DNA of 55,133 bases from an uncultured Bacilli bacterium (lineage in GTDB: Bacteria; Bacillota_I; Bacilli_A; RF39; UBA660), in contig CANQQX010000004.1 in the NCBI GenBank assembly GCA_947626115.1, positions 1 to 55,133 on the forward strand, read 5' to 3'. A program made the translations under genes and the position numbers. The notes below the pieces were generated by a model, which was not told the origin of the DNA, made no database searches, and saw nothing but the letters and a program-made list of their open reading frames with translations. This document shows, piece after piece, positions 12,221 through 53,641 of this stretch (positions are counted from its first letter, which is position 1; each line of letters begins with the position of its first letter).

Positions 12221-12244
12221 GAACTTCAAAACGAAGTTCTTTTA
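12221..12244. terminator. Bidirectional terminator between convergent genes
   Basis: GAACTTC-AAAAC-GAAGTTC followed by TTTT. Confidence 0.5.
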
Positions 12245-13045
12245 TTTACCAAATTTATATACATTTATGGAAGGACTATTAAATAGTCTAAAATTAAATT
12301 TATGATATCCTAAACCATTTACTATATATAATTTACTATTATTATCAGTATAATTACCATTTACATATTTTTTAGCCCCATCTTTTTTAATAATACCACC
12401 ATAAAAAGGAATATTTATAATACCACCTAGAGAATGGCCACTTAATACACAATCTATATTATAATTACTTATTTTACTAAAATTATCTGGTTGATGCGTA
12501 ATAGCTAAAGTATATTTAGCATCTACTTCTGTTTGCAATAATTCTTCTACTTTTGAAGTATCTGATAATCCCATTATTCTAATTGGATTTTCATCTTTAT
12601 AAAATAATAATTTACTTTCATTATCTAATAGAATAAAATCACTTTCATATAAAATATCTTTATATTCTTCTAAATATTTTTGATCATTATCCCCAATAAC
12701 AGCATATTTATATAAACTAGCATTCATCTTTTTTAAAGTATCTTTTAAATCTTTATAATCTTTATCTTGATATTTAACTCCTTCTTTTAGTAAATCACCA
12801 CTAAAAATAATTATATCAGCATCTTCATTATTTACTTTTTTCTCTAACTTATTTAATATTTTAACATCTTTAGGTTCATATAATAAATCTGAAAAATGAA
12901 CAATTTTAAGTTCTTTAAAAGATTCAGGAACATTACTACTAGATAAATTATAATAATTAACTTTTAAATTATTTACTTCAATATAATGACCATATAAAAA
13001 TATTAAAATTAAAAGGATAACAATAATTGCTAAAAACTTTTTCAT
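12242..13045 (-). CDS. Membrane-anchored metallophosphoesterase (calcineurin-like)
   Basis: HFSDLL, GDLL, IGDND and GHSLGG motifs; N-terminal TM; ATG at 13045 follows GGGGGA and forms an ATGA overlap with the upstream gene's stop. Confidence 0.8.
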   Translation of the reverse strand: MKKFLAIIVILLILIFLYGHYIEVNNLKVNYYNLSSSNVPESFKELKIVHFSDLLYEPKDVKILNKLEKKVNNEDADIIIFSGDLLKEGVKYQDKDYKDLKDTLKKMNASLYKYAVIGDNDQKYLEEYKDILYESDFILLDNESKLLFYKDENPIRIMGLSDTSKVEELLQTEVDAKYTLAITHQPDNFSKISNYNIDCVLSGHSLGGIINIPFYGGIIKKDGAKKYVNGNYTDNNSKLYIVNGLGYHKFNFRLFNSPSINVYKFGK

Positions 13046-13734
13046 AATAATCCCCCTATAAAAATTAATAAGATACATATGAAATTATGAAATGAATGGA
13101 AAAATATATTTATCCATATGTTATTAGAATCGGCATACATTTTAGCAAGAGCACAACCTAAAGCTCCATAAGGTATTATATATAATAGTTGTAATAAATT
13201 ATTACCAATACTTAACATATGTAGACTACCAAATATTAAACCAGATAATATTACATAAATAATAGTATGTTTAAAAGCATCTTTTAAATATACTCTAGTT
13301 AATAATTCTTCTACAATCGGAGCAATACCAATCATAGCTATTAAAGAGTAAATAGGCAGTGTCTTTAATATCTCTCTGTTACCAGCTTCATTAGTAGGCA
13401 TACTAATAAATGAACTAATAATTAAGTTACTAATTACCATAACAGCAAGGCCAATAATCCAATATATAAAATATTTATTAATATATTCTCGCCAATTTTT
13501 TTTAAAATCACTAAAATCAGGAATAATAATTTTTCTAAAAATAAATAAAAATATAATTAAAGTAATTAAATCAATTAATAAATAACTAAGATTAGCAATA
13601 TAAAAATTTGTACTAGTTAGTAATTTATTAAATAAAGCACTTAAAGTTATAGCAAGTCCTAAATATAATAATAAAATTAAAAATTGTTTAGTTATTAAAT
13701 TAATCTTTCGACTTAATTCATCTAAAACTTTCAT
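13042..13734 (-). CDS. CPBP-family intramembrane glutamic endopeptidase (CAAX protease-like)
   Basis: Polytopic protein; EELLTR, FGSLH and HSFHN motifs. Confidence 0.8.
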   Translation of the reverse strand: MKVLDELSRKINLITKQFLILLLYLGLAITLSALFNKLLTSTNFYIANLSYLLIDLITLIIFLFIFRKIIIPDFSDFKKNWREYINKYFIYWIIGLAVMVISNLIISSFISMPTNEAGNREILKTLPIYSLIAMIGIAPIVEELLTRVYLKDAFKHTIIYVILSGLIFGSLHMLSIGNNLLQLLYIIPYGALGCALAKMYADSNNIWINIFFHSFHNFICILLIFIGGLL

Positions 13735-13790
13735 TTATTATCACCAATTTAAATATATCACAAGTTAAAGAGATAAGCAATTTAAGAGAA

Positions 13791-14141
13791 CTAATTTGGC
13801 GCTCACTGCGCGCTAAATTAGTTAAATATTTATATATTGAATTGCGTACACAGTGTGTACGCTATTGTTATTAAATGCCCTCAATTATTGACACAGTGTG
13901 TCAACAATTGATAATTATAGTTTTGACTTTTTAGTTTTTATAATTGTCTCAACAATATTGAGACAAAATGATTTTATATAATAGATCTAATAGGTATTCA
14001 TAAAAAGTCCGCTCACTGAACGGACTTTTGATATTATATTTTTTTAAATTTGTAATAAATAAAAGGTGGCGCAATGAGCCACCTTTTGGAAAAAGTTAAG
14101 TAAAATAATGATTCCATTAATTGGGCCGACAGTGTCGTCCC
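13791..14141. repeat. Array of seven different near-perfect palindromes (19-31 bp), mostly centred on CA-N-TG
   Basis: Palindromes at 13791-13821, 13844-13862, 13882-13910, 13944-13966, 14002-14029, 14061-14087 and 14123-14141. Arms differ between copies. The last two carry flanks homologous to an internal segment of the adjacent DUF1016 genes. Confidence 0.8.
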
Positions 14142-14209
14142 TTTTTGCTTATATTTTTTGTTTTAATTCTATATGTAATGTTATTTTATATATCTAAAAT
14201 AATTTTTTA

Positions 14210-15136
14210 CTACTTCCTTTCTAATAAATAAGTAGTAATATATAAATTATTATTTGAAACATATTTAGTAACTAGTTTATTCTTTTCTCTAACTACTAAT
14301 ATTCCTTCTGTTTTATTGTGATAATTTTCTTTTATATTTTTATCAACATAATCCATATATAATTCTATTTGCCCTCTATCTTTGGGATTGTATTCTTTTA
14401 TCTTTACTTCTACTACGACAAAAGCATTTATTTTATAATTAAAGAATAATAAATCTATTTTATAAGTTCTATTATCTATTTTGCACTTATATTCATGACC
14501 TGCTAGTGTAAATCCTGCTCCTAATTCCATATAATGATTTTCAACCAATTCAATTAATATTTCATGTAATTTTTGTTCAGTTAAATTAGTAGTTTCTTTA
14601 TCAGTTTTAATAATTATTGGATCTTTTATCATATCACTTAATGTTATTGAATTATCATTATCTGTTATTAATCTAATATTATTTTTATCGGCATAAGATA
14701 ATCTGTCATAAGCTTTACTTTTTATTTCATTTCTTAACTCTCTAACAGATAAATTATTAAGTATTACTTGATTAATATAATAGTTTCTTTCGTTTTCATT
14801 TTTAATAGGAATTAACTCTACATAATGGGACCACATCAATTGGTGCGACAGTGTAGCACCTTTTTGGAACAATAAATAAAATTGTCTATATCTTTTTAAA
14901 TTACTATAATTATAATTTTTGCCATATTCTTGGGCTAATTTTTCGCCCCATTTCTTAATTAGATTTTCGCCATATTTGGCTCTAGATTCTCCACCTTGTG
15001 CATTTACTAGTAATCTACCTATTTCCCAATTAGTTTTTAATATTTCCGAATTTTCTTTAAATTCTCTAACAAACTTTTTAACTTCTCTTTCTTCAATTAA
15101 TTCAACTATTTCATTGTATATTTTTTCTTCTGTCAT
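14210..15136 (-). CDS. DUF1016/YhcG-family PD-(D/E)xK nuclease-like protein, full length
   Basis: YhcG_N-like N-terminal domain plus C-terminal restriction-endonuclease-like core (IDLLFF ... VVEVKIK). ATG at 15136 has AAAGGA 6 nt upstream; the ORF-track start at 15151 lacks an SD. Confidence 0.75.
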   Translation of the reverse strand: MTEEKIYNEIVELIEEREVKKFVREFKENSEILKTNWEIGRLLVNAQGGESRAKYGENLIKKWGEKLAQEYGKNYNYSNLKRYRQFYLLFQKGATLSHQLMWSHYVELIPIKNENERNYYINQVILNNLSVRELRNEIKSKAYDRLSYADKNNIRLITDNDNSITLSDMIKDPIIIKTDKETTNLTEQKLHEILIELVENHYMELGAGFTLAGHEYKCKIDNRTYKIDLLFFNYKINAFVVVEVKIKEYNPKDRGQIELYMDYVDKNIKENYHNKTEGILVVREKNKLVTKYVSNNNLYITTYLLERK

Positions 15137-15175
15137 AATTTTTCCTTTCATTTTTTGAGTTGTAATATTTATTTT

Positions 15176-15796
15176 TTATGATTGTCCAAAAAATCTGTTT
15201 TCTACATAATTTATTATTTCCTTATGTATAGTGGCTTCATCTAATGCAGAAATATCTTCATCAACATTAATAATAATTGGATCTTTTATCATATCTTCAA
15301 GAGTTAAGTTATTATTTTGCGTATCTGTAATTAATTTAATATTATTTTTATCTGCATAAGATAATCTTTCAAATGATTTGTTTTTTATTTCTTGAATTAA
15401 TTCTCGACTTGATAAATTATTAAGTATAACTTGATTTATATAATAGTTTCTTTCGTTCTCATTTTTGATAGGTAAAAGTGTTCTTATATGAGTCCATGTT
15501 AAAAGGTGACGCACTGCGTCACTTTTTGGAAAGGTTAAATAAAATAATCGAAATCTTTTTAAATTGCTTTCATCATAATTCTTCCCATATTCTTGAGCTA
15601 ATTTCTCGCCCCATTCCTTAATTAAATTATTGCCATACTTGGCTCTAGATGCCCCACCTTGAGCTTCTACTAGTAATCTACCTATTTCATGATATCCTTT
15701 TAATCTTTCTTCATTATCAACCATCATTCTTACTCGTGAATTGCTTTCAATTTCTATTACAATATTTTCTAATTGTTTAAATTTTTCGTTGTTCAT
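15176..15796 (-). CDS. DUF1016 N-terminal-domain-only paralogue (nuclease half missing; possibly a pseudogene)
   Basis: About 70-80% identical by eye to the N-terminal 200 aa of the neighbouring gene. Ends ...ENRFFGQS where the neighbour continues into the nuclease core. ATG at 15796 follows AAAGGAG. Confidence 0.7.
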   Translation of the reverse strand: MNNEKFKQLENIVIEIESNSRVRMMVDNEERLKGYHEIGRLLVEAQGGASRAKYGNNLIKEWGEKLAQEYGKNYDESNLKRFRLFYLTFPKSDAVRHLLTWTHIRTLLPIKNENERNYYINQVILNNLSSRELIQEIKNKSFERLSYADKNNIKLITDTQNNNLTLEDMIKDPIIINVDEDISALDEATIHKEIINYVENRFFGQS

Positions 15797-15803
15797 GCTT
15801 TTG

Positions 15804-15860
15804 CTCCTTTCACTTATATTATTCGTCACTCATAGGCCGATTTCCTTTTTATTTTGAAAA
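15804..15860 (-). promoter_or_regulatory. Promoter/leader of the truncated DUF1016 gene; left copy of an inverted repeat flanking the island
   Basis: Reverse complement reads TTTTCAAAATAAAAAGGAAATCGGCCTATGAGTGACGAATAATATAAGTGAAAGGAG and matches 53691-53760. Putative TCGGCC-16-TATAAG promoter plus SD. Confidence 0.6.
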
Positions 15861-16001
15861 ATTTCACAAAAATTTCATATTAATCAGTATTTTTCTTTTT
15901 ATAAATTATTTCAAATTTTTCTACTAATTTCCCAAAATATAATCTTGATAATGAAATGGTGGTATGATAAAATTAATAATAAGAGAGTAGGTGGATTTCG
16001 T

Positions 16002-16718
16002 ATGAAAAAAATTGTAACTTTACTACTTATGTTAATCTTAATAGTGGTACCTGTTAAAGCTGAAGAGTGTAGTTATACTGCTAAAGCTGATGCTATGAAA
16101 AAAGCTGCTAATGTTAAAGTTGATTATGAAGTTGTAGAAGATACAGAAAAATACGAAGATGGATCAACATCAACAGACGAATATTTTAAAATTTCTATTT
16201 TAAATGTAACAGAAGATTTATATGTAGAAGTTAGCAATGATGTAACAAGTGAAATTTTAACTTATAATTTTGCTGATGCTAAAGATGGTGTAATAACATT
16301 TGACTGGAGAGAAAATGAAGTAGTTACTAACTTTATTATAAAAGTATTTGCTTCTTATCAAACTCCATGTGGGGGAGAAGAATTAAAAACTATTAGAAAA
16401 CAAACTCCTAGATATAATGATTATTATAATAGAGCAATATGCTTAGAAGAAGATATGAAAGATTTTTATTTGTGTGAGAAATATACTAATTTAAAAGAAA
16501 TTGATGAAAGTATGTTTATTACTAAAATAGATAGTTTTATGGATGGAAAAATAGATGAAACGGGAAAGAGTACTGAAGAAGTAAAAAAAGAAGAAACTTT
16601 CCAAGATAAACTTGAAAAATATAAATATTTTATATTTGGTGGAATTATTATTTTAGTTTTAGGAACTACTACTGTTGTGGTTGTTAGAAAAAGAAACAGA
16701 GGGAAAAAGGTAAAATGA
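16002..16718 (+). CDS. Secreted/C-terminally anchored protein of unknown function, first gene of the Tad-like operon
   Basis: Signal peptide MKKIVTLLLMLILIVVPVKA; C-terminal TM plus basic tail RKRNRGKKVK; ATG at 16002 follows GGTGGA; ATGA overlap with the next gene. Confidence 0.55.
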   Translation: MKKIVTLLLMLILIVVPVKAEECSYTAKADAMKKAANVKVDYEVVEDTEKYEDGSTSTDEYFKISILNVTEDLYVEVSNDVTSEILTYNFADAKDGVITFDWRENEVVTNFIIKVFASYQTPCGGEELKTIRKQTPRYNDYYNRAICLEEDMKDFYLCEKYTNLKEIDESMFITKIDSFMDGKIDETGKSTEEVKKEETFQDKLEKYKYFIFGGIIILVLGTTTVVVVRKRNRGKKVK

Positions 16719-19700
16719 AAAAAGCGTTAAAATTATTAAGTTTGTTAATGTTGTCTTTACTTGTAAGCGTGATAAATGTAAAGGCTGCGATAGTTATAAA
16801 ACAAGAAGGAGATAAATATGGAGCAGCGCAAGGAACGGCGTATTATAATGGACGTAAAGTTGTCGGTGCCTTTGGTGGTTTAGATATTTCTAGGTATTAT
16901 TTTTATGTTGATAATGCAAAAAAAGATGCCTACTGTCATAACCCTGGAGTAACAGATTATCTTGATAGTGATTTACCAAATGGTGGTACTTTAACTTTTA
17001 AAAATATTAGAAATTTATCCGATCCAATTCAAAATGATCGTAAAGCAAGTATATATGATGCTGGGCTAATGTCTATAATTAATAATAATTGTGGTTCGGG
17101 TGATAAATGTTATGTAGCGAAATTTATAGCAATTAATATGTATGAGCATTTATTTCCAATGATGAATTCAAATGGTAATAACAATAATTCAGAAATTAAA
17201 TATATAAAATACTTAATTAATTCTATGTATGATGATATAAGTGGAGATTTAAAAACTTTAGCTAATGCTATGGGATCTTATAACGTTATAAGGGGAAAAT
17301 TTACAAGCGGAGCTAGCAATTGTACAGGAAATAAATGTGATGATTTAGGAGCTGTTTCTGACGCCAAAACAATGGTTAAATCAGCACTAAAAAAAGCTAT
17401 AGCGTATGCTGAAGATGGTGAAGCAACAACAACTATAACAAATGGTGTGCAAAAAAGAACAACAACAACTGATGATAATAATATAATTACATATACTAAT
17501 TCTGTAGTTCATACTGTAACAATTACTAAATTTATGGGAACTGATGGTAAGAAAGAAGGATCAGTTAAATTAAATTATAAATGTAATAGTAATTGTGCTA
17601 ATGTAAATACAAAATTTTATATTGAAGTAAATGGAGAATTTCAACCAATAAATGATTTATCAACAATAAATTTTGTCGATTATACTGATAATGGTACAGG
17701 TACCGTTAAAATTAAAATAGAATTTTCAAGTACTTCTGATAAATATAAAAATTGTGAACCAATAAAATATACATTAGGTGTAACATATACACATTATTCT
17801 GTTTCTCAATCAGGTTATTCTACTGGTAAATGTACAAATTCAGCAAAATGTCAAGGATTTTATGTAGCAAATGCTAGTAGTGATACAACAACAAAAACAT
17901 CATCTATTGATAACTCTATTTCTCTTTGCACCACTCCTGGAGATGTATCATCTTGTGCTGCAAAAATTGATAATGTTGAATGTATTGCATGTAAGAAGAA
18001 TGAACATGATATAGATATTAAAGAAGGATATCAATATGCTAATGATAATACTTGTGATACTTCTGGAGCAAAAGAAAATATAAAGGAATGCGTAGCTAAT
18101 AATAGTAGTGATGCGGCAGGACATACTTTAAGAAATAGTGAATTAAGTAATGATGTTACTGCTATAATGGATAAATATGGTTATAATGGTAAAGGTGTAT
18201 TTTGTAAAGAAGATTATCATTTACATTTACCAGGTTCTATTCTAGTTGATACAGGTAGGTATTTTACATTAAAATCATCTATAACTGGTACAGAATCTTG
18301 TTATACAAATGAACTGGGAAGTAATGGCACTGTTAAGTCTGCAATAATTAATGAAGGAAAAAGAACAGTAGATGTATATAATCAAAAATCCATGTATGAA
18401 GCAATTGGCAATTGTATTGGTGATCCAAATTGTTACAATGTTGATAAGGACATGAGAGTTTGTAAAACAATAAAACAAGTTAAAGCTGGTAATTTATTAC
18501 GTAAGAAACCTAATGATGATGATGCAGAGGCGCTTAATGATTATGCGAATGCGTGGGCGAAAACTTGTAAAGGTCAATGGTTAAATATAGATGGGATGAG
18601 TTTTGCTAAATGTATCACTGACCAAGGCGTAGAAGCTATTACAAAATTGCCTGATTCATATAAAGTTCGACGTATTGTTACAAAACGATTTTATCAAATA
18701 AGAGCAAAAGTAACATTAAATGCTGAATATACTGTTTATGAAGGGGGCACTACATGTTCGACTGGCAGTCGTAGATTAGATACGACTGAAGAAGAGAATG
18801 GACTTTTTTATGGTGATTGGTTGCCTTGTCAGTATTATAATGGCAAAGAAAATGAATTTGAGTGTGGTGAGAGTGCCGAATGTTCTGCAACTGTTGAAGA
18901 TTTAACAGCTGAGCAAAAAAGTGCAGCTTTGGCTCAAATTGGTAGAACTGCTAAAGTAACAGGCGGTGGCTCAACAGGTGGTGGTACAGCTGGTAAAGAT
19001 TCTGCAAGTTCTGAATATGTAGTTTCTAACGGATATGGTTTAAAAGCAAAGCTAGGTACTGGGGGAATATATTATTTGATGCAAGATTGGAACAAAGCTA
19101 CTGGATATAATGGAACTAGTGCATCTCAAGATTCAGCATATAACAATAGTTTTGATGATACACCATTTAATGAAGGTTGGAGAATGAATTATAATTTTGC
19201 ACCAGATATGTATTTTTGGTATCAAGAAGAATACATGAATAAAGCTAGAACTGATCAAATGGATATGTATGATAAAAGTTTAAGTGGGGTATCGTCTCAA
19301 TATTGTAGTGGTAGTGTAAGTGATGATTACTCACTATGTAATGGTAGCCAAAATAACTGGACAGATCATCCAACAGTAGATCGTGGCTCAGTTTGTGCAT
19401 GTACATCTGATGGATGCAGTAATTACAATTATGTCCTATCAAATGTTAAATATGTTAAACAATCCCAAAAAGCAGAAGCTAAATTTATTACACCAACACA
19501 ATTTTATACATTGCATCCATCTGGAAGTATTGTAGTAGGTAACCAAGGTCAAAGTGATAAAATTGAAAATAGTAAAGAACTTACTAATGGACTTCCTGTA
19601 GGTCTTGGATCAAATGGTACAAGAAGATATGTAATGTGGTTTGAAAATTTAGGTGAATATTTTGATAAAGATACTTTAGGACGTGTTTGGGGTGCGAATG

Positions 19701-20728
19701 ATAGTGTAGTATCTAAGTTACTTCAAGATAGAACTAAATGTAATGTTCCTGATTCTGCTTTAGTAGATGAAGATAATACTCAAGGTACTATTCATGATGA
19801 AGGTGTCTATGCTTGTAAGTATAGTACGGATTGTCCTGATGTTTGTAAAAAACCTGAAGAATCTAGTGATGGTAAATACCATTGTAAAGATGGTGAAGTA
19901 TGTGAAGAAGAAGATTACAATCGTGAATGTTGTCCAACTTGTCCACCTTCCGTATCATATATTTGTGCCGTAACAACTGATGAACAAGGAAATTTATTAT
20001 ATTATGATAAGAGTGGTACTGAAACTGATCCAGACACTTATAAATCCCAATGTTGTCCAAATGGTGAATGTCCAGTAACTTGCTCATTCTGCTTATATGA
20101 CGGTAATAAATTAAATGTTCAATATCGTCCAATTACTTCTGAAGATTTAAATCCAAATGATCGTGATCTTGGTAGAAACTGGAGATGGGAAGAGCCAATT
20201 AATACAGGCTTAGAATTAAAAGCTTATGTTACTACTGAAGAAATTCAAGAAAAAGGCGATGGCATTTATGATATACCAGATGATCACTTTACTAATCCAA
20301 ATTCTGATTATGAATATGCTGTTAAAATTACAATGAATGGTAGAATGATAAGTAAAATAAAGAGCCTTAATAAAAAAGATGAATACAAAGATGGCTATGC
20401 TGGTAATACATTAAAATGTTATGATTTAAAAGATGGCGATAAGGTATATGAAAATGTCTTCTGCTATAGTAACTTTATTGATGAATTATTAGAAGATGAT
20501 AAAGTTAAAGATAATATTCAATTTACAAGAGTAAGACCAAAAGAAAACGAGAGAAATAATACCGAAAATAATGAAAGATATTTCACTAGTTGGATTAAAG
20601 CCGATAGTAGTAAATGGCAAATTCAAACACAAAAAGGATTTGCATACTATAAAGAACATTATGGTATGGAAATAGATTATGATAATGATACAACAATAGA
20701 TTATCATCTTGGACCATCATGGAAATAG
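16715..20728 (+). CDS. 1337-aa secreted Cys-rich protein (candidate pilus-associated adhesin)
   Basis: Signal peptide; about 49 Cys by my count, including CCPTCP and CCPNGECPVTC clusters; Gly-rich linker; no recognisable catalytic motif. Confidence 0.6.
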   Translation: MKKALKLLSLLMLSLLVSVINVKAAIVIKQEGDKYGAAQGTAYYNGRKVVGAFGGLDISRYYFYVDNAKKDAYCHNPGVTDYLDSDLPNGGTLTFKNIRNLSDPIQNDRKASIYDAGLMSIINNNCGSGDKCYVAKFIAINMYEHLFPMMNSNGNNNNSEIKYIKYLINSMYDDISGDLKTLANAMGSYNVIRGKFTSGASNCTGNKCDDLGAVSDAKTMVKSALKKAIAYAEDGEATTTITNGVQKRTTTTDDNNIITYTNSVVHTVTITKFMGTDGKKEGSVKLNYKCNSNCANVNTKFYIEVNGEFQPINDLSTINFVDYTDNGTGTVKIKIEFSSTSDKYKNCEPIKYTLGVTYTHYSVSQSGYSTGKCTNSAKCQGFYVANASSDTTTKTSSIDNSISLCTTPGDVSSCAAKIDNVECIACKKNEHDIDIKEGYQYANDNTCDTSGAKENIKECVANNSSDAAGHTLRNSELSNDVTAIMDKYGYNGKGVFCKEDYHLHLPGSILVDTGRYFTLKSSITGTESCYTNELGSNGTVKSAIINEGKRTVDVYNQKSMYEAIGNCIGDPNCYNVDKDMRVCKTIKQVKAGNLLRKKPNDDDAEALNDYANAWAKTCKGQWLNIDGMSFAKCITDQGVEAITKLPDSYKVRRIVTKRFYQIRAKVTLNAEYTVYEGGTTCSTGSRRLDTTEEENGLFYGDWLPCQYYNGKENEFECGESAECSATVEDLTAEQKSAALAQIGRTAKVTGGGSTGGGTAGKDSASSEYVVSNGYGLKAKLGTGGIYYLMQDWNKATGYNGTSASQDSAYNNSFDDTPFNEGWRMNYNFAPDMYFWYQEEYMNKARTDQMDMYDKSLSGVSSQYCSGSVSDDYSLCNGSQNNWTDHPTVDRGSVCACTSDGCSNYNYVLSNVKYVKQSQKAEAKFITPTQFYTLHPSGSIVVGNQGQSDKIENSKELTNGLPVGLGSNGTRRYVMWFENLGEYFDKDTLGRVWGANDSVVSKLLQDRTKCNVPDSALVDEDNTQGTIHDEGVYACKYSTDCPDVCKKPEESSDGKYHCKDGEVCEEEDYNRECCPTCPPSVSYICAVTTDEQGNLLYYDKSGTETDPDTYKSQCCPNGECPVTCSFCLYDGNKLNVQYRPITSEDLNPNDRDLGRNWRWEEPINTGLELKAYVTTEEIQEKGDGIYDIPDDHFTNPNSDYEYAVKITMNGRMISKIKSLNKKDEYKDGYAGNTLKCYDLKDGDKVYENVFCYSNFIDELLEDDKVKDNIQFTRVRPKENERNNTENNERYFTSWIKADSSKWQIQTQKGFAYYKEHYGMEIDYDNDTTIDYHLGPSWK

Positions 20729-21172: not shown

Positions 21173-21937
21173 ATGGGAAATTTATTAGCTAATTTAAAAA
21201 GATTTATCTCAAATAAAAATACAGTTACTATTTTAGCTGTTTTAGCAGGAATTATAATATTATGGTATTTTTATAATTATCGGGTTAATCAAGCAATTAC
21301 AACAGTTAGAATTCCTTATGCACTTGCTAAGATTGATACAAAAGATAAAGTAGAAACTGATAATGTTGGTTTTAGAGAAATTACTAGAAGTTCTTTAAGA
21401 GATAATGATTTAGTAGAAAACATAGCTGAACTAGATGGTAAATATATTTGTGAAGGAACAAGTATTCCCCAAAATGGTTTCTTTCATAAATCACAAATAT
21501 GTGATAAAAGTGAAATTTCTAATTCAGTTAATGAGGATTTACCAAAGGGCTATACTTTGGCTAGTATAAAAGTTACAAATGAAACAACTTATGCCAATTC
21601 CATAGCACCAGGTGATTATATTGATTTATATATGTATGCTAAAGATACTAATGGTGCTATATATGGTAAATTAATTGAAAGTATTAAAGTACTTGAAGTA
21701 AGAGATAGTAGTGGACGTAATGTTTTCTGGGATTCATCTGCTGGTGATTCAGCTACACTATTATTTGGTGTACCAGATGAATATGCTAACTTATTAGATT
21801 TAGCTAATAGAATAAGTGGTATTGATATTCGTCCAAGACTTAGAGGTGCAGATTATTCTAAAAACCCTGGTGAAACAGAGTTAAAGAGTGAAGAATTACA
21901 AGCATTTATCTATAGTCAAGTAACAATTGTAGAATAA
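21173..21937 (+). CDS. CpaB/RcpC-like Flp pilus assembly protein
   Basis: N-terminal TM; SAF-like segment; GDYIDLYMY...IKVLEVRD...ATLLFGVPDEYANLLDLA pattern typical of CpaB. Confidence 0.6.
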   Translation: MGNLLANLKRFISNKNTVTILAVLAGIIILWYFYNYRVNQAITTVRIPYALAKIDTKDKVETDNVGFREITRSSLRDNDLVENIAELDGKYICEGTSIPQNGFFHKSQICDKSEISNSVNEDLPKGYTLASIKVTNETTYANSIAPGDYIDLYMYAKDTNGAIYGKLIESIKVLEVRDSSGRNVFWDSSAGDSATLLFGVPDEYANLLDLANRISGIDIRPRLRGADYSKNPGETELKSEELQAFIYSQVTIVE

Positions 21938-21967: not shown

Positions 21968-23065
21968 GTGAATGATGCTATATTTTCACAAATAGATTTT
22001 GGCCCTTTAAAAGAGTTTTTAGATGATGATAACATTACCGATGTATCTTATGGTAATGGTGGTCAAATCCATTTAAAAACATTGGATAAAGGAGTTTATC
22101 GAATTGAAAGGCCAGATGTTAATAATGCTTTAGTAGAAAAGCTAGCGTTTCAATGCTCTAATGTTATGGGTAAAACATTTAATATGGCTCATCCATTTTT
22201 AGATGCTGAATCAGCTGAATTACGTTTAAACTTTATTCATGATTCAATCGCTACCAATGGTATAGCTTGTGTTATCAGAAAAACCCCAGCCAAAATAAGA
22301 CTTAATCGCGAAAAATTATTAAGTGAACAATATGTTTCCGAAAATATCTTAGATTTTTTACTTACTTGTGTTGATGGACATTGTAATATGATTGTTAGTG
22401 GCGAAACTGGTAGTGGTAAAACTGAACTTGTTAAATACCTAGCAAGTCATACTAAGGAAAATGAAAAAGTTATTACCATAGAAGATACTCTCGAACTTCA
22501 CTTAGATAAAATATTTCCACATCGGGATATAGTTGCCATGAAGACTAATAATATCGCTAGTTATTCAGATGTATTAGTAGCCTGCATGAGACAAGACCCC
22601 CGTTGGATTTTACTATCCGAAGTTCGTAGTGCTGAAGCCGTAACGGCAGTTCGTAACTCTATTTCATCTGGACATAACATTTTATCAACTATCCACTCTG
22701 ATAGAGCCTTAAATGTGCCAATGCGGATGTATTCATTACTAGAAACTAGTCAAGATATAGATCAATTTTTAAAATCAATTCATAGATATGTTCAACTGGC
22801 AATTCATGTTAAAGGTTATATGAGTGCCGAACTAGGACGTTTCCAAAGAGAAATTGTCGAAATCTGTGAATTTTATGTAGATGAAAATAATGAAGCAGGA
22901 TCTAATGTTATATATAAAAAGAATTTAGATGGCGCGATTCAATTTAATAATCCAACTAAATATTTACGAGAATATTTAGGAAGTCAAGGAGTCGTTATTA
23001 AAGAAAATTTATTTGTTGATGAAAATAATGATAATAATAGTACAGAAGTAATAGATTCACTATAA
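21968..23065 (+). CDS. TadA/CpaF-family secretion ATPase (VirB11 superfamily)
   Basis: 365 aa; Walker A GETGSGKTE; IEDTLEL; Walker B/Asp box RQDPRWILLSEVR; His box STIHSD; GTG start after an A/G-rich SD. Confidence 0.8.
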   Translation: MNDAIFSQIDFGPLKEFLDDDNITDVSYGNGGQIHLKTLDKGVYRIERPDVNNALVEKLAFQCSNVMGKTFNMAHPFLDAESAELRLNFIHDSIATNGIACVIRKTPAKIRLNREKLLSEQYVSENILDFLLTCVDGHCNMIVSGETGSGKTELVKYLASHTKENEKVITIEDTLELHLDKIFPHRDIVAMKTNNIASYSDVLVACMRQDPRWILLSEVRSAEAVTAVRNSISSGHNILSTIHSDRALNVPMRMYSLLETSQDIDQFLKSIHRYVQLAIHVKGYMSAELGRFQREIVEICEFYVDENNEAGSNVIYKKNLDGAIQFNNPTKYLREYLGSQGVVIKENLFVDENNDNNSTEVIDSL

Positions 23066-29256: not shown

Positions 29257-29841
29257 GTGATAATTACTAATAGTATGGCAAAGAACAATTTAAATAATTA
29301 TGCCAATAAAAATAACAAAATAAGTAGAGATATAAAAGATGGTAAATTATTTAAAATAATAACAGGATTATATGAAACCGATCCAAATACTCCTGGCTAT
29401 TTACTAGCAGGTAGTATTTATGGGCCATCATATATTTCTTTTGAATATGCTCTTTCTTTTTATGGACTAATCCCTGAAAGAGTTAGTACAATTACATGTG
29501 CAACTTTTGATAAGAAAAAGAAAAAGCAATATAATACAAACTTTGGGGTATTTACTTATAGAGATATACCAGTAGATGCTTATTCAGAAGAAATTGAATT
29601 AAAAATAGAAGGAGATTATTCATATCAAATAGCTAAACCAGAAAAAGCTTTATGTGATAAACTATATACTTTATCGCCTTTAAAAAATTATGAAAATCTT
29701 GAAAATATGTTATTTAATGATTTGCGCATAGATGAAATGGAATTTAATAAATTAGATGTCAATATAATTGAAAAATTAAGTAGTCTATATCATTCTACTA
29801 ATATTCTATTACTTGCAAAATATATGAGGAGAGAAAAATGA
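29257..29841 (+). CDS. AbiEi-family type IV toxin-antitoxin system antitoxin / transcriptional regulator
   Basis: Gene pair and 4-nt overlap with an AbiEii-type nucleotidyltransferase; AbiEi_4-like sequence (LFKIITGLYE...GPSYISFEYALSFYGLIPE). GTG at 29257 follows GAGGTG; alternative ATG at 29275. Confidence 0.7.
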   Translation: MIITNSMAKNNLNNYANKNNKISRDIKDGKLFKIITGLYETDPNTPGYLLAGSIYGPSYISFEYALSFYGLIPERVSTITCATFDKKKKKQYNTNFGVFTYRDIPVDAYSEEIELKIEGDYSYQIAKPEKALCDKLYTLSPLKNYENLENMLFNDLRIDEMEFNKLDVNIIEKLSSLYHSTNILLLAKYMRREK

Positions 29842-43972: not shown

Positions 43973-44507
43973 TCCAAAATTTACGAGTACTTGGTTACCA
44001 ATTAGACAAATTATGAATGGGATGATTCAACTTGATGATGGAACTTTTGTTACGGGAGTAAAAATTTCTCCTAAAAATATATTTATTATGGGTGCTCAAG
44101 CGCAAGATAATATGGTATATAATTTAAGAAATTTTTACAATACTATTGATTATGAATTTTGGCTTATTATTGCAGATCGTCCTGTTGATATCAACTTGTA
44201 TCTGGCTGAGTTACAAAAATTATATAATAATACTTCTAATAATGAAGCTAGAAAATTAATTTTACAAGATATCAATAAAGCTAATCAATTTATGAGTATA
44301 GAATATAATGTTGTTGATACAGAGTATTATTTAATATTTCAAGAGAAAAAATTGGAAATATTACAAAAAAAACTTCATAATATGATAAGTGGTCTTGCTA
44401 ACAGTGGTTTACAAGCTAGTCAAACAAGTAATGATGATTTACGAATGATTTTAGATAATCTTCTTAATGGCGGAGATGCTATTAATTTTGGGACGGTGAT
44501 GAGTTAA
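43944..44507 (+). CDS. VirB4-family ATPase, N-terminal domain as a separate ORF
   Basis: WLPIRQIMNGMIQLDDGTFVTGVKISPKNIF resembles the start of Gram-positive VirB4 proteins (Tn916 Orf16/CD1110 type). 187 aa + 595 aa = 782 aa, the usual single-protein length. Confidence 0.6.
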   Translation: MKNSTQTVNNPKFTSTWLPIRQIMNGMIQLDDGTFVTGVKISPKNIFIMGAQAQDNMVYNLRNFYNTIDYEFWLIIADRPVDINLYLAELQKLYNNTSNNEARKLILQDINKANQFMSIEYNVVDTEYYLIFQEKKLEILQKKLHNMISGLANSGLQASQTSNDDLRMILDNLLNGGDAINFGTVMS

Positions 44508-46294
44508 TGAGTACTGTAAAAAATGCTATAGCACCAAAAGGTATGGAATTTAAACCAACTGAATTTAGAATTAGTGGTAAATATTCTACAATTATTACTA
44601 TTGTTACTTTTCCTAAAAATATCTATGTAGGTTATTTATCTGATATTACAAATATTTCTGGTGTTAAAATTGTTGTTAAACATATACCAATTCAATTTCA
44701 AGTATTACAAAAAATGATTAATAAAGAAATTGCTGATTTAAAAACAAGATATCAATCAGAACATGATCAAACATTACAAGAAAAAATTCGTCAAGATTAT
44801 GAATCATTAGAGCAATTCATAAGTATGCTTGCTTCTACTGATGCTCGTATATTCGATTTTCAAATGCATTTAATGCTTACTGCTGATAGTAAGGAAGAAC
44901 TTGATAATAAAAAAATGGAAGTTAAAAGTTATTTAAATGCAATGGGAATGGCAGGAGTAGCTTTAATGTTTGAACAAGAAAAAGTACTTAAAAGTATTGT
45001 ACCAATATTTCCACCACAAGATATTGAACAACGAATTGGTACACCAATTCCTTCAGTTACTATTGCGGCCATGTATCCATTTGTTTTTGATAGCATTAAA
45101 GATCCTGGATTATCTTGCTTATTCGGTGTAGATTTTTCTGGTGGAGTTGTTTTATTTAATCAATTCTTGTATCAAATAAGAAAAGAAAATAACAGAAATA
45201 ATGCTAATATGATATTACTAGGTACATCAGGGTCAGGTAAATCAACTGCAGCTAAACTATTACTTCGTACACATTTACGTAACGGTTGTAAAGTTGTAGC
45301 AATAGATCCTGAAGGTGAACTAGGTGATATGACTGAACTTATGGGTGGAGATTTCTTAGACCTTGGTAAAGGTGGAGATTTTGGTATGATTAATCCACTG
45401 GAAATAGTAATGGATGTTGATGAAGAAGAAATATCTCAAGGCTTAGGATATACTGTTTTAACAAGAACACTTCAACAATTAAAGGCATTTATGAAATATT
45501 ATAATCCATCAATTGAAGAAGATGTTTTAACATTATTTAGTGAAGTAGTACAAGATACTTATAAAAGATTTAAAATAGATTTTGATACAGATTTTACTAA
45601 ACTTACAAGAGATGATTATCCAACATTTGATGATGTTTATGCTACTATTCAAGGAAGACTTTTATCTATGGTCGATGCAACTCATGAGCGAGATGTAATG
45701 GAAAGACTTGAACTTAAAGTAAGACCTTTAGTTAAAGAATTAAGATATTACTTTACTGGTAAAACTACCATTCAAATTCAAAGTGATTTTATAGTATTTA
45801 ATATAAAAGAGTTAATGAATAGTGATGAAAATATTAAAAATGCTCTATTCTTTAATATATTAAAATTTGCTTGGGGTTTATGTCTAGATAAAAATGTTAA
45901 TACAGTTATGATGGTTGATGAAGCCCACGTACTTTTAGCTACACATAATGAACTTGGGGCAGAGTTCTTAGCTCAAATTCAAAGACGTAGTCGTAAATAT
46001 AATACCGGTACAATAATTATTACACAACAACCAACTGACTTTGCTGCACCATCTGTTATTCAACATGGTAAAGCAATATTTGATAATGCATCTTACTATT
46101 TAGTAATGGGGCTTCGTAAACAAGCTGTTGAAGATTTAGGCCAATTAATAGATTTAAATGAAAGTGAAAAAGAAGGAATAAAATATTATCCACAAGGACA
46201 AGGACTATTTATCTGTGGTAATAGAAGAATGCGTATCAATGTTGTAGTAACTCAAGAAGAACTAGATTCATTTGGCTCTGGTGGCGGTTATTAA
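44507..46294 (+). CDS. VirB4-family conjugation ATPase, C-terminal ATPase portion
   Basis: IAPKGMEFKPTEFRISGKY start of the middle domain; Walker A GTSGSGKST; Walker B MMVDEAHVLL; start shares 1 nt with the upstream stop (TAATG). Confidence 0.85.
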   Translation: MSTVKNAIAPKGMEFKPTEFRISGKYSTIITIVTFPKNIYVGYLSDITNISGVKIVVKHIPIQFQVLQKMINKEIADLKTRYQSEHDQTLQEKIRQDYESLEQFISMLASTDARIFDFQMHLMLTADSKEELDNKKMEVKSYLNAMGMAGVALMFEQEKVLKSIVPIFPPQDIEQRIGTPIPSVTIAAMYPFVFDSIKDPGLSCLFGVDFSGGVVLFNQFLYQIRKENNRNNANMILLGTSGSGKSTAAKLLLRTHLRNGCKVVAIDPEGELGDMTELMGGDFLDLGKGGDFGMINPLEIVMDVDEEEISQGLGYTVLTRTLQQLKAFMKYYNPSIEEDVLTLFSEVVQDTYKRFKIDFDTDFTKLTRDDYPTFDDVYATIQGRLLSMVDATHERDVMERLELKVRPLVKELRYYFTGKTTIQIQSDFIVFNIKELMNSDENIKNALFFNILKFAWGLCLDKNVNTVMMVDEAHVLLATHNELGAEFLAQIQRRSRKYNTGTIIITQQPTDFAAPSVIQHGKAIFDNASYYLVMGLRKQAVEDLGQLIDLNESEKEGIKYYPQGQGLFICGNRRMRINVVVTQEELDSFGSGGGY

Positions 46295-51418: not shown

Positions 51419-53641
51419 ATGAAGTTTAAAGTAGAAGCTAAAGATTTTTTCTTATTTGTTGTATATTGTATTATACTTCTTTATTTGTGTGCTTTAGCAG
51501 TATCTAATTTGTTTTGTTTACTTAATACTGGAACTTTTTATGGTCTTTTACCCCTAAGTGCTTTTTCTTTACAATATTTACCATTTACTTTAGGATTATT
51601 TTTTGGTGCTTTAATTTTAATATTTACTAGTGTATCATCTTATATTTTTAATAAAGAAAAAGGTAGTGGACTTGGCATAAAAGTTAATAAGGAAAAAGCC
51701 AGTGATGGTTATGCTAGATGGGCAAAAGATAAAGAAATTAAAAATGCTAGTAAAGTAGTTAAAATAAATCCATCAGAAAAAGTTCTTACAGCTGGTGGTA
51801 TTCCGTTAATTAGTAATACTAAAGAAATTTGGGTTGATAATAGTGATTATCATAATTTAGTTATTGGTTCAACTGGTTCAGGAAAATCTGAAAGTTTAGT
51901 TTTTCCAATGATTAATATTTTAGCTAAAAAGGGTGAAAGTATGATTATTACTGACCCTAAAGGTGAAATATATAGTAAAACAGCCAATAATTTAAAAGAT
52001 CGTGGTTATAAAATTATTGTTTTAAATTTTAGGGAACCAGGAAAAGGAAATGCTTGGAATCCATTAGATTTGCCTTATAAATATTATAAGGAAGGAAACT
52101 TTGATAAAGCTACTGAACTTTTAGAGGATGTTTCATTAAACATTTTATATGATCCATCTAAAGGTAATGGTGATTCTGAATTCTGGGAAAAAGGTTCAGC
52201 TGATTATTTTTCAGGACTTGCGATTGGTTTATTTCAAGATGCTAAAGAAAAAGAAATTAATTTAAATAGTATTAACTATATGAGTACAGTTGGAGAAGAG
52301 AGATATGCTACAAGTAACTTTATTAAAGAATATTTTAATTTAAAAGGTAAAGATTCTAATGCATATATGTTTGCTAATACAGTTATTAATGCTCCAAGTG
52401 ATACTAAGGGTGGACTACTTTCAACATTTAGTCAAAAGATAAGAATGTTTTCAACTAAAGAAAATTTAGCCGAAATGCTTTCTTATAGTGATTTTGATAT
52501 GCGTGATATAGGTAAAGGTAAAACAGCAGTATTTATGATTATTCATGATGAGAAAAAAACATATCATACTTTAATGACTATTTTTATAAAACAAGTATAT
52601 GAAACACTTATTGATGTAGCCCAAGCCAATGGTGGTAAACTTCAATATCGTACTAATTTTATCTTAGATGAATTTGCTAATATGCCACCACTTAAAGATG
52701 TTGATAGTATGGTTTCGGCAGCTCGTAGTCGTGATATTAGATTTACCTTTATTATTCAAAACTTTGCCCAACTTAATGATGTTTATGGGGAAGAAGTGGC
52801 TCAAGTAATTCGTGGTAACTGTGGTAATTTAGTTTATTTAATTTCAACTGAACTTAAAGCTTTAGAAGAAATAAGTAAAATGTGTGGTGAAGTTAAATCA
52901 AAAGAAAAAGATAAAACAGCATCAACACCTTTAGTAACAGTTAGTGATTTACAAAAATTAAAATTAGGAGAAGCTATTATATTAAGACTTAGAATGAATC
53001 CATTTAAAACAAAATATGCGCCTAATTTTAAAATAAACTGGGGAGAAGATTATCCACCAGCTACTTATCCAACTAGAGAATTTCATCAAGTTGAATTATT
53101 TGATTTAAAAAAATATGTTACTGAAGAAAAACGTAAAAGAATGATGAATAATTCAAATAATGATGTTGGTTCAATGATGGAACCAGGTGGAATGGGGGGA
53201 ATTAGCCCATTTGGAATGGGTAGTGGTTTTGGGATGCCAAATATCCCAGTTGGTAATCCAATAAATCCTTTAAATACACCTTCTTCTAATCCATTTGCCA
53301 GTGGCCTTCAAAATATGGATATCGATGCTATGATGAAGGATATTGATCAAAAGTTAAAAGAACTTGATGAAGAAGAGAAAAAGCAAAAAGAAAAATTGAA
53401 GAAACAGGAGCCTAAAAGTAATGATAAACAATTAGAATCTTTAGAAGAAACAGAATTACCAGAATTAAAAAATAACAGTCCTAAAGAAGAAAATAATACT
53501 AATGGTGATGAAAAAGAAAAAATTGATGAAAATCAAAAATCAGATAAACCAAAAGTAAATATTGATGTTGATAGTGTTATTATGAATGAAAATGTCATAA
53601 CTGATGATGAATTCTTTGATGATTTCTTTGGCGATGAATAA
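51419..53641 (+). CDS. VirD4/TraG-type type IV coupling protein
   Basis: Two N-terminal TMs; Walker A GSTGSGKSE; DPKGE; Walker B FILDEFANMP; low-complexity Gly/Met/Pro, then Lys/Glu, then acidic C-terminal tail. Confidence 0.85.
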   Translation: MKFKVEAKDFFLFVVYCIILLYLCALAVSNLFCLLNTGTFYGLLPLSAFSLQYLPFTLGLFFGALILIFTSVSSYIFNKEKGSGLGIKVNKEKASDGYARWAKDKEIKNASKVVKINPSEKVLTAGGIPLISNTKEIWVDNSDYHNLVIGSTGSGKSESLVFPMINILAKKGESMIITDPKGEIYSKTANNLKDRGYKIIVLNFREPGKGNAWNPLDLPYKYYKEGNFDKATELLEDVSLNILYDPSKGNGDSEFWEKGSADYFSGLAIGLFQDAKEKEINLNSINYMSTVGEERYATSNFIKEYFNLKGKDSNAYMFANTVINAPSDTKGGLLSTFSQKIRMFSTKENLAEMLSYSDFDMRDIGKGKTAVFMIIHDEKKTYHTLMTIFIKQVYETLIDVAQANGGKLQYRTNFILDEFANMPPLKDVDSMVSAARSRDIRFTFIIQNFAQLNDVYGEEVAQVIRGNCGNLVYLISTELKALEEISKMCGEVKSKEKDKTASTPLVTVSDLQKLKLGEAIILRLRMNPFKTKYAPNFKINWGEDYPPATYPTREFHQVELFDLKKYVTEEKRKRMMNNSNNDVGSMMEPGGMGGISPFGMGSGFGMPNIPVGNPINPLNTPSSNPFASGLQNMDIDAMMKDIDQKLKELDEEEKKQKEKLKKQEPKSNDKQLESLEETELPELKNNSPKEENNTNGDEKEKIDENQKSDKPKVNIDVDSVIMNENVITDDEFFDDFFGDE

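Follow-up and report, generated by a model that had tools for sequence, protein, structure and literature searches.

Why does a nuclease gene carry a palindrome inside its reading frame, and why do more palindromes, each with different arms, stand in a row behind it? The question is raised by a 55,133-nt stretch of DNA from an uncultured Bacilli bacterium (contig CANQQX010000004.1, positions 1 to 55133), which we analyzed at its full length and call the window. A first reading of its sequence (the original prediction) had noted nine palindromes between 13791 and 15527, seven in a spacer and two inside tandem DUF1016 genes. Here, we show that all nine are copies of a single element of the DUF1016/YhcG nuclease gene family, that selection on the nucleic acid, and not on the protein, maintains its base pairing, with arms that change only in compensating pairs, and that the element is unstable DNA, found as in-frame duplications, as extragenic orphans, and at the boundaries of deletions, insertions, and mosaic segments. 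As to its role, the explanation we prefer, at a little under an even chance, is a recombinogenic hairpin or cruciform site in DNA, probably for the DUF1016 nuclease itself.

Palindromes in and behind two DUF1016 genes

The window is AT-rich (GC content of about 27%), and its nearest relatives are gut metagenome-assembled genomes (MAGs) of uncultured Bacilli, mostly from rabbit, some with records labeled "Tenericutes" or "Mycoplasma." The relative loci or stretches that we compared with the window carry L-numbers (L001, L002, and so on). Gene 1 (14210 to 15151, minus strand) encodes a full-length DUF1016/YhcG-type nuclease of 313 amino acids, with a DUF1016_N domain and a YhcG_C domain of the PD-(D/E)XK type. 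The two Pfam domains that we used to judge family membership (PF17761 and PF06250) were both found in it, with E values of 3e-32 and 1e-30 (111.9 and 106.6 bits against cutoffs of about 33), and PADLOC assigned it to the candidate defense family PDC-S02 (E = 9e-72). Directly upstream lies gene 2 (15176 to 15829, minus strand), a paralog of 217 amino acids which has only the DUF1016_N domain (104.3 bits in Pfam) and no nuclease domain; genes 1 and 2 match at 80% over 428 nt by blastn. Gene 2 also matches L002 (223 to 846) at 87%, inside a high-scoring segment pair of 312 amino acids, and because this L002 ortholog is full length, the window copy is a truncated one. Downstream of gene 1, a spacer of 475 bp (13735 to 14209) leads to the gene of a CPBP-family membrane protease (13042 to 13734, minus strand).

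All nine palindromes were present at the positions originally given, and the two intragenic ones do lie at the same codons of the two genes. The palindrome of gene 1 (14842 to 14860, minus strand) reads GGTGCTACA-C-TGTCGCACC on the gene strand, encodes KGATLSH, and has 8 of 9 possible pairs. That of gene 2 (15501 to 15527, minus strand) reads AAAAAGTGACGCA-G-TGCGTCACCTTTT on the gene strand, encodes KSDAVRH, has 12 of 13 pairs, folds as a DNA hairpin of -8.5 kcal/mol, and has an identical copy in L048. The spacer holds orphan units, of which P1 to P5 are unstranded. P1 (13791 to 13821) has 13 of 15 pairs, the core of P2 (13844 to 13862, extending to 13840 to 13866) is perfect, and so is P3 over 13888 to 13904 (extending to 13881 to 13911). 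P4 (13944 to 13966) has 9-nt arms and a 5-nt loop, and P5 (14003 to 14029) folds as a DNA hairpin of -8.8 kcal/mol. P6 (unit 14055 to 14113, palindrome 14061 to 14087) and P7 (unit 14115 to 14147, palindrome 14123 to 14141) are on the minus strand and have kept coding flanks, LFYLTF.K-GGSLRHLL in P6 and the in-frame QKGTTLSAQLM in P7. An eighth spacer unit, absent from the original prediction, is an AT-rich degenerate palindrome at 14177 to 14204, again unstranded. The centers of the spacer units are 58, 58, 61, 59, 43, and 47 nt apart, and as single-stranded DNA each unit forms a stem of 8 to 14 bp with a C:G-closed A-N-T triloop (-4.5 to -12.5 kcal/mol).

The clustering of these palindromes is far beyond chance. 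A scan of the whole window for arms with 8 or more matches and no more than one mismatch, loops of up to 6 nt, and a minimum of four G:C pairs returned eight palindromes in 55 kb, seven of them within 13840 to 15527, and those seven all have a 1-nt CA-N-TG center. A covariance model built from related gene segments, with both window genes in its training set, scored the palindromes of genes 1 and 2 at 43.6 and 51.5 bits, respectively, and at E < 0.03 found in the window only the two genes and six spacer units (13792 to 15532); its best match outside the locus had an E value of about 1.

The spacer had been taken for tandem partial copies of one gene segment of about 55 bp, which holds for two units. 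Together with their flanks, and both in frame, P6 aligns with 50 nt of gene 2 (84%, E = 2e-9) and P7 with 33 nt of gene 1 (nt 286 to 318; 82%, E = 1e-3); P7 also matches a DUF1016 fragment in L021 at 94% over 33 nt, and its L002 ortholog is a perfect palindrome. For P1 to P5, however, the homology to genes is the palindrome alone, and the matches of P1 to P3 to genes elsewhere are limited to 23 to 33 nt. The P1 core equals the palindrome expressed in the L002 ortholog of gene 1 (1764 to 1790) and a silent fragment in L001, the P2 core is the same as the palindrome inside a DUF1016 gene of L017 (2244 to 2270), and the 28-nt core of P3 equals that of a full-length gene at L002 505 to 532 (96% over 28 nt). 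P4, which the covariance model does not recover, has an L002 ortholog with a CA-A-TG center and is a derivative of such a palindrome. Aligned with L002 3265 to 3790, the window spacer differs by unit-level indels of 67 nt and 92 nt, the latter flanked by the direct repeat ATCAATTGT, and the cores of P1 and of the unit at 14177 to 14204 are wholly replaced. L002 has a different core between conserved flanks at the position of P1 and, within the same outer arms as the eighth unit, a GC-rich core, TAATTATTGCGACA-A-TGTCGCAATAATCA (CA-A-TG). P5 differs from its L002 ortholog by compensatory changes at two pairs between almost identical flanks. These comparisons show the spacer to be a row of orphan units left from, or copied from, DUF1016 paralogs.

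The palindrome across the DUF1016/YhcG family

The two intragenic copies in the window are instances of a family-wide feature. It is a palindrome of 19 to 27 bp, typically with AATT at both ends, CA-N-TG at the center, and seven variable bases on one side of the center that are complementary to the seven on the other, and it usually codes for Ile-x-x-(S/T/P/A)-(L/V/M)-x-x-(Q/K)-Leu. In 78 loci found with gene 1, the CA-N-TG center was present in 122 of 168 palindromes; 97 of the 122 lie inside DUF1016 matches and 73 exactly at residue 101, always on the gene strand. The yhcG gene of Escherichia coli K-12 has three tandem in-frame palindromes at the homologous place, where the RefSeq annotation has no repeat feature. 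A second sample of 80 loci, found with E. coli YhcG, covers Enterobacteria, Planctomycetes, Acidobacteria, Cyanobacteria, Bacteroidota, and Bdellovibrionales among the bacteria and Woese-, Nano-, Micr-, and Altiarchaeota and Methanosarcinales among the archaea. Arms of at least 9 nt were found in the target region of 85% of these loci, compared with 1.9% of control windows; the other 12 loci have cores of 5 to 8 nt there, with a GAC-N3-GTC core in 11. The most frequent core in this sample is TTCCAGACA-N-TGTCTGGAA.

At least 120 stretches of the genome collection contain the exact consensus 19-mer, compared with a chance expectation that we estimate at about 10 to 20 from the size of the collection; of the 137 matches listed when the viral collection is included, 97 fall on the canonical codons of DUF1016 genes. 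The original prediction would have fallen if homologs elsewhere lacked the symmetry at this position; we looked, and the symmetry holds across the family. Searches of the literature on DUF1016, on yhcG with palindrome, and on yhcG with nuclease returned no description of it. In a DUF1016 gene of a member of the Gemmataceae (L110, 2777 to 2801), the center is inverted to TG-C-CA (ATTCGGCAGATG-C-CATCTGCCGAAT) and the palindrome is still perfect, so even the CA/TG step is replaceable as long as symmetry is kept.

Selection on base pairing

To avoid selecting for palindromy, we aligned 191 distinct DUF1016 gene segments on an invariant Trp codon 3' of the palindrome. At the fixed register, 9.4 of 13 positions pair on average, compared with 3.76 at 148,324 other centers in the same genes, and resampling of synonymous codons gave 5.45 ± 0.10 pairs. 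Segments with at least 12 of 13 pairs make up 38% of the set and 0.04% after resampling. The original prediction regarded the arm changes as compensatory, and this was borne out in the 98 in-register segments, those with indels being left out: 90.1% of the cells are paired, compared with 61.1 ± 1.0% in shuffles and about 36% with slid partners, and 352 cells have changed on both sides, compared with 132 ± 7 in shuffles. Covariation scored 0.651 here and 0.150 in shuffles. All four Watson-Crick pair types are used at each of arm positions 3 to 8; the C:G pair two positions from the center is invariant, and the A:T pair beside the center varies in only 12 of the 98 segments.

Synonymous sites tell the same of the core. 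Among 56 genes found with YhcG, which range from 26 to 65% GC, serine in the core is TCT in 56 of 56 (21% in the background), glutamine is CAG in 55 of 56, threonine is ACA in 46 of 55, leucine is CTG in 25 of 25, and valine is GTG in 26 of 26. The pairing at one register, the covariation, and the fixed synonymous sites together indicate a constraint on the nucleic acid that is old or universally retained. The proposal that a structured nucleic acid element is selected inside the coding sequence is thus strongly supported, and for the whole DUF1016 family.

Instability in Escherichia

In E. coli, the palindrome family occupies 2 to 5 places per genome, all of them at the gltD-nanQ locus. Two O157:H7 strains, 4276 (L163, 1150 to 1450) and NE1127 (L161, 9914 to 10136), are identical over 223 flanking nt, and their yhcG genes differ by a clean in-frame indel of 78 nt, which is exactly units 2 and 3. 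This shows very recent instability within a clonal lineage. In strain 04A19CPO007, yhcG breaks off precisely where unit 3 ends on its right side, and unrelated DNA follows. BLAST counts of one-unit alleles in E. coli are confounded by pieces joined across the indel.

Orphans occur here as well. One stands 15 nt after the yhcG stop codon in both K-12 and O157, and K-12 has a second, 15 nt after the gltD stop codon, so that the 8.3-kb gltF-yhcADEF-yhcG segment is enclosed by two orphan palindromes (L079, 633 to 657 and 8971 to 8995). Strain SK1144 has no yhcG and a single palindrome between gltD and nanQ (L160, 10001 to 10029), and the yhcG-less junction is covered to at least 80% by 947 of 5426 genomes, SK1144 included. 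The lone SK1144 palindrome is identical at 27 of 27 positions to unit 1 of O157 yhcG yet stands at the position of the downstream orphan. We considered whether a simple crossover between the two flanking palindromes of K-12 could have produced this allele, but the arms do not fit a single exchange. The orphans of E. coli share arms with the intragenic units, and that of E. whittamii shares arms with its own intragenic unit 2, both differing from E. coli by compensating changes. At least four alleles of the gltD-nanQ locus can be told apart in E. coli: a lone palindrome, yhcG only, the fimbrial operon together with yhcG, enclosed by two palindromes, and a yhcG that is truncated and followed by a foreign open reading frame (ORF). 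The suggestion of a recombination hotspot draws support from these alleles and from related gut MAGs, which are described below.

DNA or RNA

A constraint on pairing could act on the transcript. The element would then be an RNA hairpin in the DUF1016 mRNA that controls translation or decay or mediates autoregulation of a potentially toxic nuclease, with the orphans serving as stabilizers in 3' untranslated regions or as terminators. The covarying stem below a conserved loop-proximal C-A-N-U-G is what is seen in protein-recognized RNA hairpins, the site always accompanies the ORF, and the placement of the E. coli orphans 15 nt behind stop codons would suit such a role. Folded as RNA, the window spacer is a string of hairpins (z = -8.6), and it has four terminator-like sites where 0.5 are expected. 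P6 is, however, the sole one of these on the gene strand, and the intragenic copies, like most family members, have AATT flanks and no T-run. The original idea that decayed gene ends were reused as terminators is weak for the further reason that the units are internal gene segments and not gene ends. Mismatches on the sense strand also speak against RNA, being 17 of the G:T type and 29 of the A:C type with no bias toward G:U, which fits DNA read on both strands. Pairing reaches the A:T beside the center, which a hairpin cannot use, and breakpoints, unit indels, and lone palindromes in gene-less alleles would be left unexplained. Public E. coli RNA runs and rabbit-gut DNA runs, in the form of contigs, gave flat depth and cross-mapping between paralogs. 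We regard the RNA hairpin as unlikely and favor the DNA level, because there is no G:U bias on the sense strand, the symmetry runs to the center, and the rearrangements are DNA events.

Orphan arrays and mosaic genes in gut Bacilli

In the gut Bacilli with this locus, the DUF1016 gene is multicopy, and its copies often stand in tandem arrays (period of about 910 bp) in which each gene has a different palindrome (L026, L035, L037, and L051). Orphan arrays adjoin the genes in L002, L021, and L036. Decayed coding flanks that are still present identify many orphans as gene fragments of 60 to 130 nt centered on the palindrome; in L036 and L021, there are tandem fragments of about 100 nt with coding flanks. 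The palindromes stay perfect where the flanks have decayed. Isolated gene fragments were detectable in nine cases, a small sample, of which five cover residue 101.

Orthologs of gene 1 in L002, L052, and L001 are 90 to 100% identical in most 30-nt windows, with isolated windows at 76 to 86%. Identity falls to 53 to 66% at about nt 240 to 330 and is 60 to 76% at the edges of a segment around the palindrome (nt 210 to 360), of which there are three distinct versions. A silent fragment upstream of the L001 gene matches the segment expressed in L002 at 97% over 71 nt, and a fragment in L004 matches the one expressed in L052 and L001 at 94% over 81 nt. The region upstream of gene 2 that would contain its promoter and 5' untranslated region (15830 to 15944) is conserved before the gene 1 orthologs at L052 2860 to 3000 and L001 2950 to 3160; the upstream paralog is absent in L052 and is reduced to a 130-nt palindrome-centered fragment in L001. 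The DUF1016 gene itself also moves: L052 has a 90%-identical copy of gene 1 directly after the M26 peptidase gene (window position 38223), with homology ending at the ends of the ORF.

These mosaics bear on the earlier suggestion of silent donor cassettes. In a programmed diversification, the orphans would be silent donors, and gene conversion would replace the palindrome-centered segment and thereby vary the encoded surface loop. Three gene 1 orthologs that differ only in about 150 nt around the palindrome, silent fragments that match expressed segments (those in L001 and L004), the tandem fragments of L036 and L021, and the identity of the P1 core with the palindrome expressed in L002 all agree with it. 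Flanks homologous to the expressed gene, as a donor needs, are present in P6 and P7 and in the fragments of L001, L004, L021, and L036 but not in P1 to P5, which share the palindrome only and offer nothing usable for homologous recombination; the suggestion is thus partly supported, being in line with the mosaic orthologs and their matching fragments but not with most units of the window. Moreover, the mosaics were seen between genomes only, and ordinary recombination among paralogs gives identical ones. Most lineages, including E. coli, have one gene and no donors and still keep the palindrome, and the loop is nearly invariant outside the gut Bacilli lineage. A purpose-built diversification system is, in our judgment, decidedly unlikely.

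The same loci could be read as the work of no function at all. Palindromes are hot spots for slippage and templated mutation, and a quasi-palindrome might perpetuate itself by replication template switching, with the orphans as debris of decayed paralogs. Unit indels flanked by short direct repeats and orphans that keep decaying coding flanks are in keeping with this. Against it are the nucleotide conservation over Bacteria and Archaea in genes that are just 40% identical, with fixed synonymous sites, and the palindromes that remain perfect beside decayed flanks. An in-frame deletion from a tolerant loop would remove a useless palindrome, and a lasting mismatch counts against rapid self-correction. 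Taken together, these points make a functionless palindrome highly improbable.

The encoded loop and a possible reader

The AlphaFold2 model of gene 1 (predicted local distance difference test score of 77) places residues 95 to 106 in a coil between helices 82 to 94 and 107 to 113. The palindrome is thus predicted to encode a surface loop of the N-terminal domain and not, as originally proposed, a helix. Homologs accept 12 to 26 extra codons at the loop, the protein constraint on residues 95 to 106 would be low given their predicted loop state, and among the gut Bacilli paralogs, the palindrome-encoded segment is the hypervariable part. Many PADLOC models of PDC-S02 (PDLC04797, 04800, 04805, 04808, 04821, and others) have 107 to 133 positions and end near residue 105 to 130, just after the palindrome. 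This suggests that database DUF1016 genes are often broken at that place.

In Foldseek searches with the gene 1 model, only the C-terminal PD-(D/E)XK domain was matched (NucS, XisH, and Card1/Can2, with NucS closest), and no match was found for the N-terminal domain; a sequence search of solved structures found no homolog. An earlier profile analysis placed the YhcG nuclease domain nearest to the archaeal Holliday-junction resolvases (PMC1189080). The N-terminal domain has a predicted helix-turn-helix, SVRELRNEIK, which is identical among paralogs with differing arms. It gave a weak match to HTH_ParB (E = 5e-4, 20.5 bits), below the cutoff of 22.6, and Pfam found no ParB N-terminal domain.

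This match leads to another explanation, in which the palindrome is a sequence-specific duplex operator or centromere-like site bound by a dimeric N-terminal domain, as parS lies in or beside parB. The dyad symmetry that runs to the center, the consensus TTCCAGACA-N-TGTCTGGAA that is identical across phyla and in lone copies, and the arms common to orphans and intragenic units of E. coli would all be natural for an operator. Its arms would not be expected to vary freely under compensation while the predicted recognition helix stays invariant, and the orphans of gut Bacilli do not match the neighboring genes. With the HTH_ParB score below the Pfam cutoff as well, we find a duplex operator very unlikely.

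We come back, then, to a DNA structure read by the enzyme of the gene that contains it. The element would act as a hairpin or an extruded cruciform, with its C:G-closed A-N-T triloop, and would serve the DUF1016 enzyme in cis as its site; the nuclease domain of this enzyme is similar to Holliday-junction resolvases. We favor this enzyme as the reader because its gene is the only one that always travels with the site, because its domain is resolvase-like, and because the helix-turn-helix is invariant together with the tip and foot of the hairpin. Binding or nicking at the element would give the gene a portable site of its own, for autoregulation or loading, and such a site, being part of the ORF, is not lost when the gene moves from one operon or mobile element to another, which would suit either use. 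We infer that the DUF1016 protein cuts the site; nicking would start local recombination, as a side effect or as the purpose, with gain and loss of units, copying of the palindrome between gene and orphan sites, and exchange of segments of about 100 to 150 nt among paralogs as possible outcomes.

Several observations weigh against this explanation. The link between enzyme and site, drawn from their co-location and co-inheritance, is a putative one. The helix-turn-helix, invariant while the arms differ, cannot read the arms sequence-specifically. Of the orphans in gut Bacilli, 1 of 41 matches a palindrome of a gene at the same locus; a cognate orphan beside its gene is found in Escherichia but not there. 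Lone consensus palindromes occur without a DUF1016 gene within about 8 kb, including those of one family of viral contigs. A G:G mismatch retained across several Kluyvera-type loci counts against a fast self-correcting mechanism, stems of 12 to 13 bp are near the lower limit for cruciform extrusion, and the mosaic segments could arise by ordinary recombination in conserved flanking blocks. The chance of a role at the RNA level, discussed above, has to be subtracted too. A bolder version, which holds that every DUF1016/YhcG gene contains the hairpin or cruciform substrate of its own enzyme, that nicking starts recombination which rewrites the surface loop from silent cassettes where paralogs or arrays exist, and that lone palindromes are footprints, seems to us rather doubtful.

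DUF1016/YhcG is a frequent passenger of restriction-modification operons and mobile elements and, to our knowledge, has been without a known function for 20 years. The palindrome now suggests what its substrate or its control may be, in a concrete form that can be tested in a model organism. It is a second, nucleic acid-level constraint at a fixed place of the reading frame in a family that spans Bacteria and Archaea and includes E. coli K-12, and we offer it as the reason why DUF1016 genes are often annotated as fragments that break near residue 100 to 130. Unit copy number is a microevolutionary and possible typing marker among O157:H7 strains, and the element may be a new way to focus recombination on a gene segment. 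If the bolder version were true, a candidate antiphage gene would, in organisms from E. coli to archaea, contain a generator of diversity that targets itself and is set off by a DNA structure.

Surroundings of the locus and lone palindromes

From 15945 to 54636, nearly all ORFs of the window are on the plus strand, and the region resembles a conjugative element. It encodes RcpC/CpaB (21173 to 21937) and a T2SSE ATPase (21968 to 23065) of a Tad-type pilus, a VirB4-like ATPase (44507 to 46294), an M23/lysozyme wall hydrolase (46854 to 49514), and a type IV coupling protein (51419 to 53641). The DUF1016 genes and the palindrome array sit where this putative element meets core genes (ProRS, UvrB, and an ABC transporter). 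Domain searches of ORFs of at least 110 amino acids found no integrase in the window, and no relaxase was found in it. Two further genes of the defense or mobility type are on the element, for an AbiEii nucleotidyltransferase toxin (29838 to 30698) and for an Rpn-like PDDEXK_2 "nuclease family transposase" (53773 to 54636). It also encodes a Cys-rich protein of 1337 amino acids (16715 to 20728) without a Pfam match, whose N-terminal hydrophobic segment resembles a signal peptide as judged by eye, and a protein of 2471 amino acids (30769 to 38184) with IgA1-protease-type M26 domains. On the other side of the locus, the CPBP protease ORF and a metallophosphoesterase ORF (12242 to 13078), both on one strand, have 37 nt in common, and the upstream start called for the second of them may be wrong. 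No tRNAs were found in the window, and Rfam had zero matches at the gathering score anywhere in it.

Lone palindromes are also seen in one family of related viral contigs from IMG/VR (L284 to L296), which keep the exact 27-nt consensus palindrome in an intergenic place (e.g., L295 3114 to 3132). Their stored flanks contain no DUF1016 gene, and the ORFs beside the palindrome gave no Pfam match and no integrase. This palindrome could be a decoy, a footprint, or an attachment site. The last of these, extended to the whole family, would make the palindrome an integration target, as tRNA genes are, for phages, integrative and conjugative elements, or islands. This would explain why our locus lies where core genes meet a putative conjugative element, why palindromes border the fimbrial segment of K-12 and a foreign gene, and why there are viral copies. 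The lack of an integrase, both in the window ORFs searched and beside the viral palindrome, is against it, as are the flanking copies that are complete palindromes and not hybrids, and why the gene possesses a palindrome would be left unexplained. We consider an attachment site extremely unlikely.

Comparison with known systems

We compared the element with known repeat families and found that it fits none of them: REP/RAYT, attC, CRISPR, parS, and type III antitoxins each fail in at least one defining feature. We know of no other gene family with an in-frame palindrome that is conserved in structure and variable in sequence. A general likeness is to REP/RAYT, where short hairpin palindromes with a conserved foot and tip and variable stems form regularly spaced clusters next to the gene of a nuclease-type enzyme that presumably works on them. 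REPs, however, are extragenic and present in tens to hundreds of near-identical copies per genome, and their enzyme is a Y1 HUH transposase, whereas the DUF1016 element has 2 to 5 copies per E. coli genome, a primary copy in frame in the ORF of a PD-(D/E)XK enzyme, and array copies that all differ. REP/RAYT accordingly failed on copy number and dispersal (one locus only in E. coli, 13.79 to 15.53 kb only in the window, arms all different), and no Y1 (HUH) TnpA-REP domain was found in window ORFs of at least 110 amino acids.

Integron attC sites also keep structure with variable sequence and covarying pairs, and they are recognized as folded single strands at the boundaries of gene-sized cassettes. 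The DUF1016 element differs from them in being far shorter, perfectly symmetric with a 1-nt center, inside an ORF, and without R and L boxes or extrahelical bases; no integron integrase was found among the window ORFs searched. A CRISPR array was rejected since the palindromes all differ, the intervening DNA consists of AT-rich gene remnants, and there is no Rfam match, and a type III toxin-antitoxin system of the ToxIN kind since the units are nonidentical and downstream of the genes, where ToxIN has identical tandem repeats of about 36 nt upstream of an endoribonuclease toxin, again without an Rfam match.

With parS and parB (e.g., spo0J of Bacillus subtilis) and with sopC of plasmid F, the element shares a palindromic site co-inherited with the gene of a protein that binds it or, in the case of DUF1016, would do so, and sopC is a tandem array of 43-bp units, each with a palindrome. 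Those sites are sequence-specific and identical within an array, and ParB has a CTPase domain, whereas the DUF1016 arms vary. A ParB-parS system was rejected on the subthreshold HTH_ParB match, the missing ParB N-terminal domain, and the nonidentical sites, parS sites being identical copies of 16 bp.

Tandem partial copies beside a full-length gene, and mosaic expressed genes in related strains, are known from pilE/pilS of Neisseria, vlsE/vls of Borrelia, and tprK of Treponema. Non-B DNA is implicated in the initiation of such exchange, a G-quadruplex at pilE and an inverted repeat at vlsE. Pathogens use those systems to vary their surface antigens, whereas the DUF1016 gene encodes a cytoplasmic nuclease; here, the variable segment and the structure-forming sequence are one, donors are missing from most lineages, and the mosaics are between genomes only. 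Quasi-palindromes that act as template-switch hot spots, such as that in thyA of E. coli, are short imperfect palindromes at which one arm is copied from the other in replication, with compensating changes and local indels of the kind also seen here, but they are incidental, unconserved across homologs, and without orphan copies. The palindromic elements of Rickettsia (RPEs), finally, are likewise palindromic DNA in frame within coding genes and tolerated in surface regions of the proteins. They measure 100 to 150 bp and are spread over many unrelated genes of one genus, whereas the DUF1016 element measures 19 to 27 bp and keeps to one codon position of one gene family in two domains of life.

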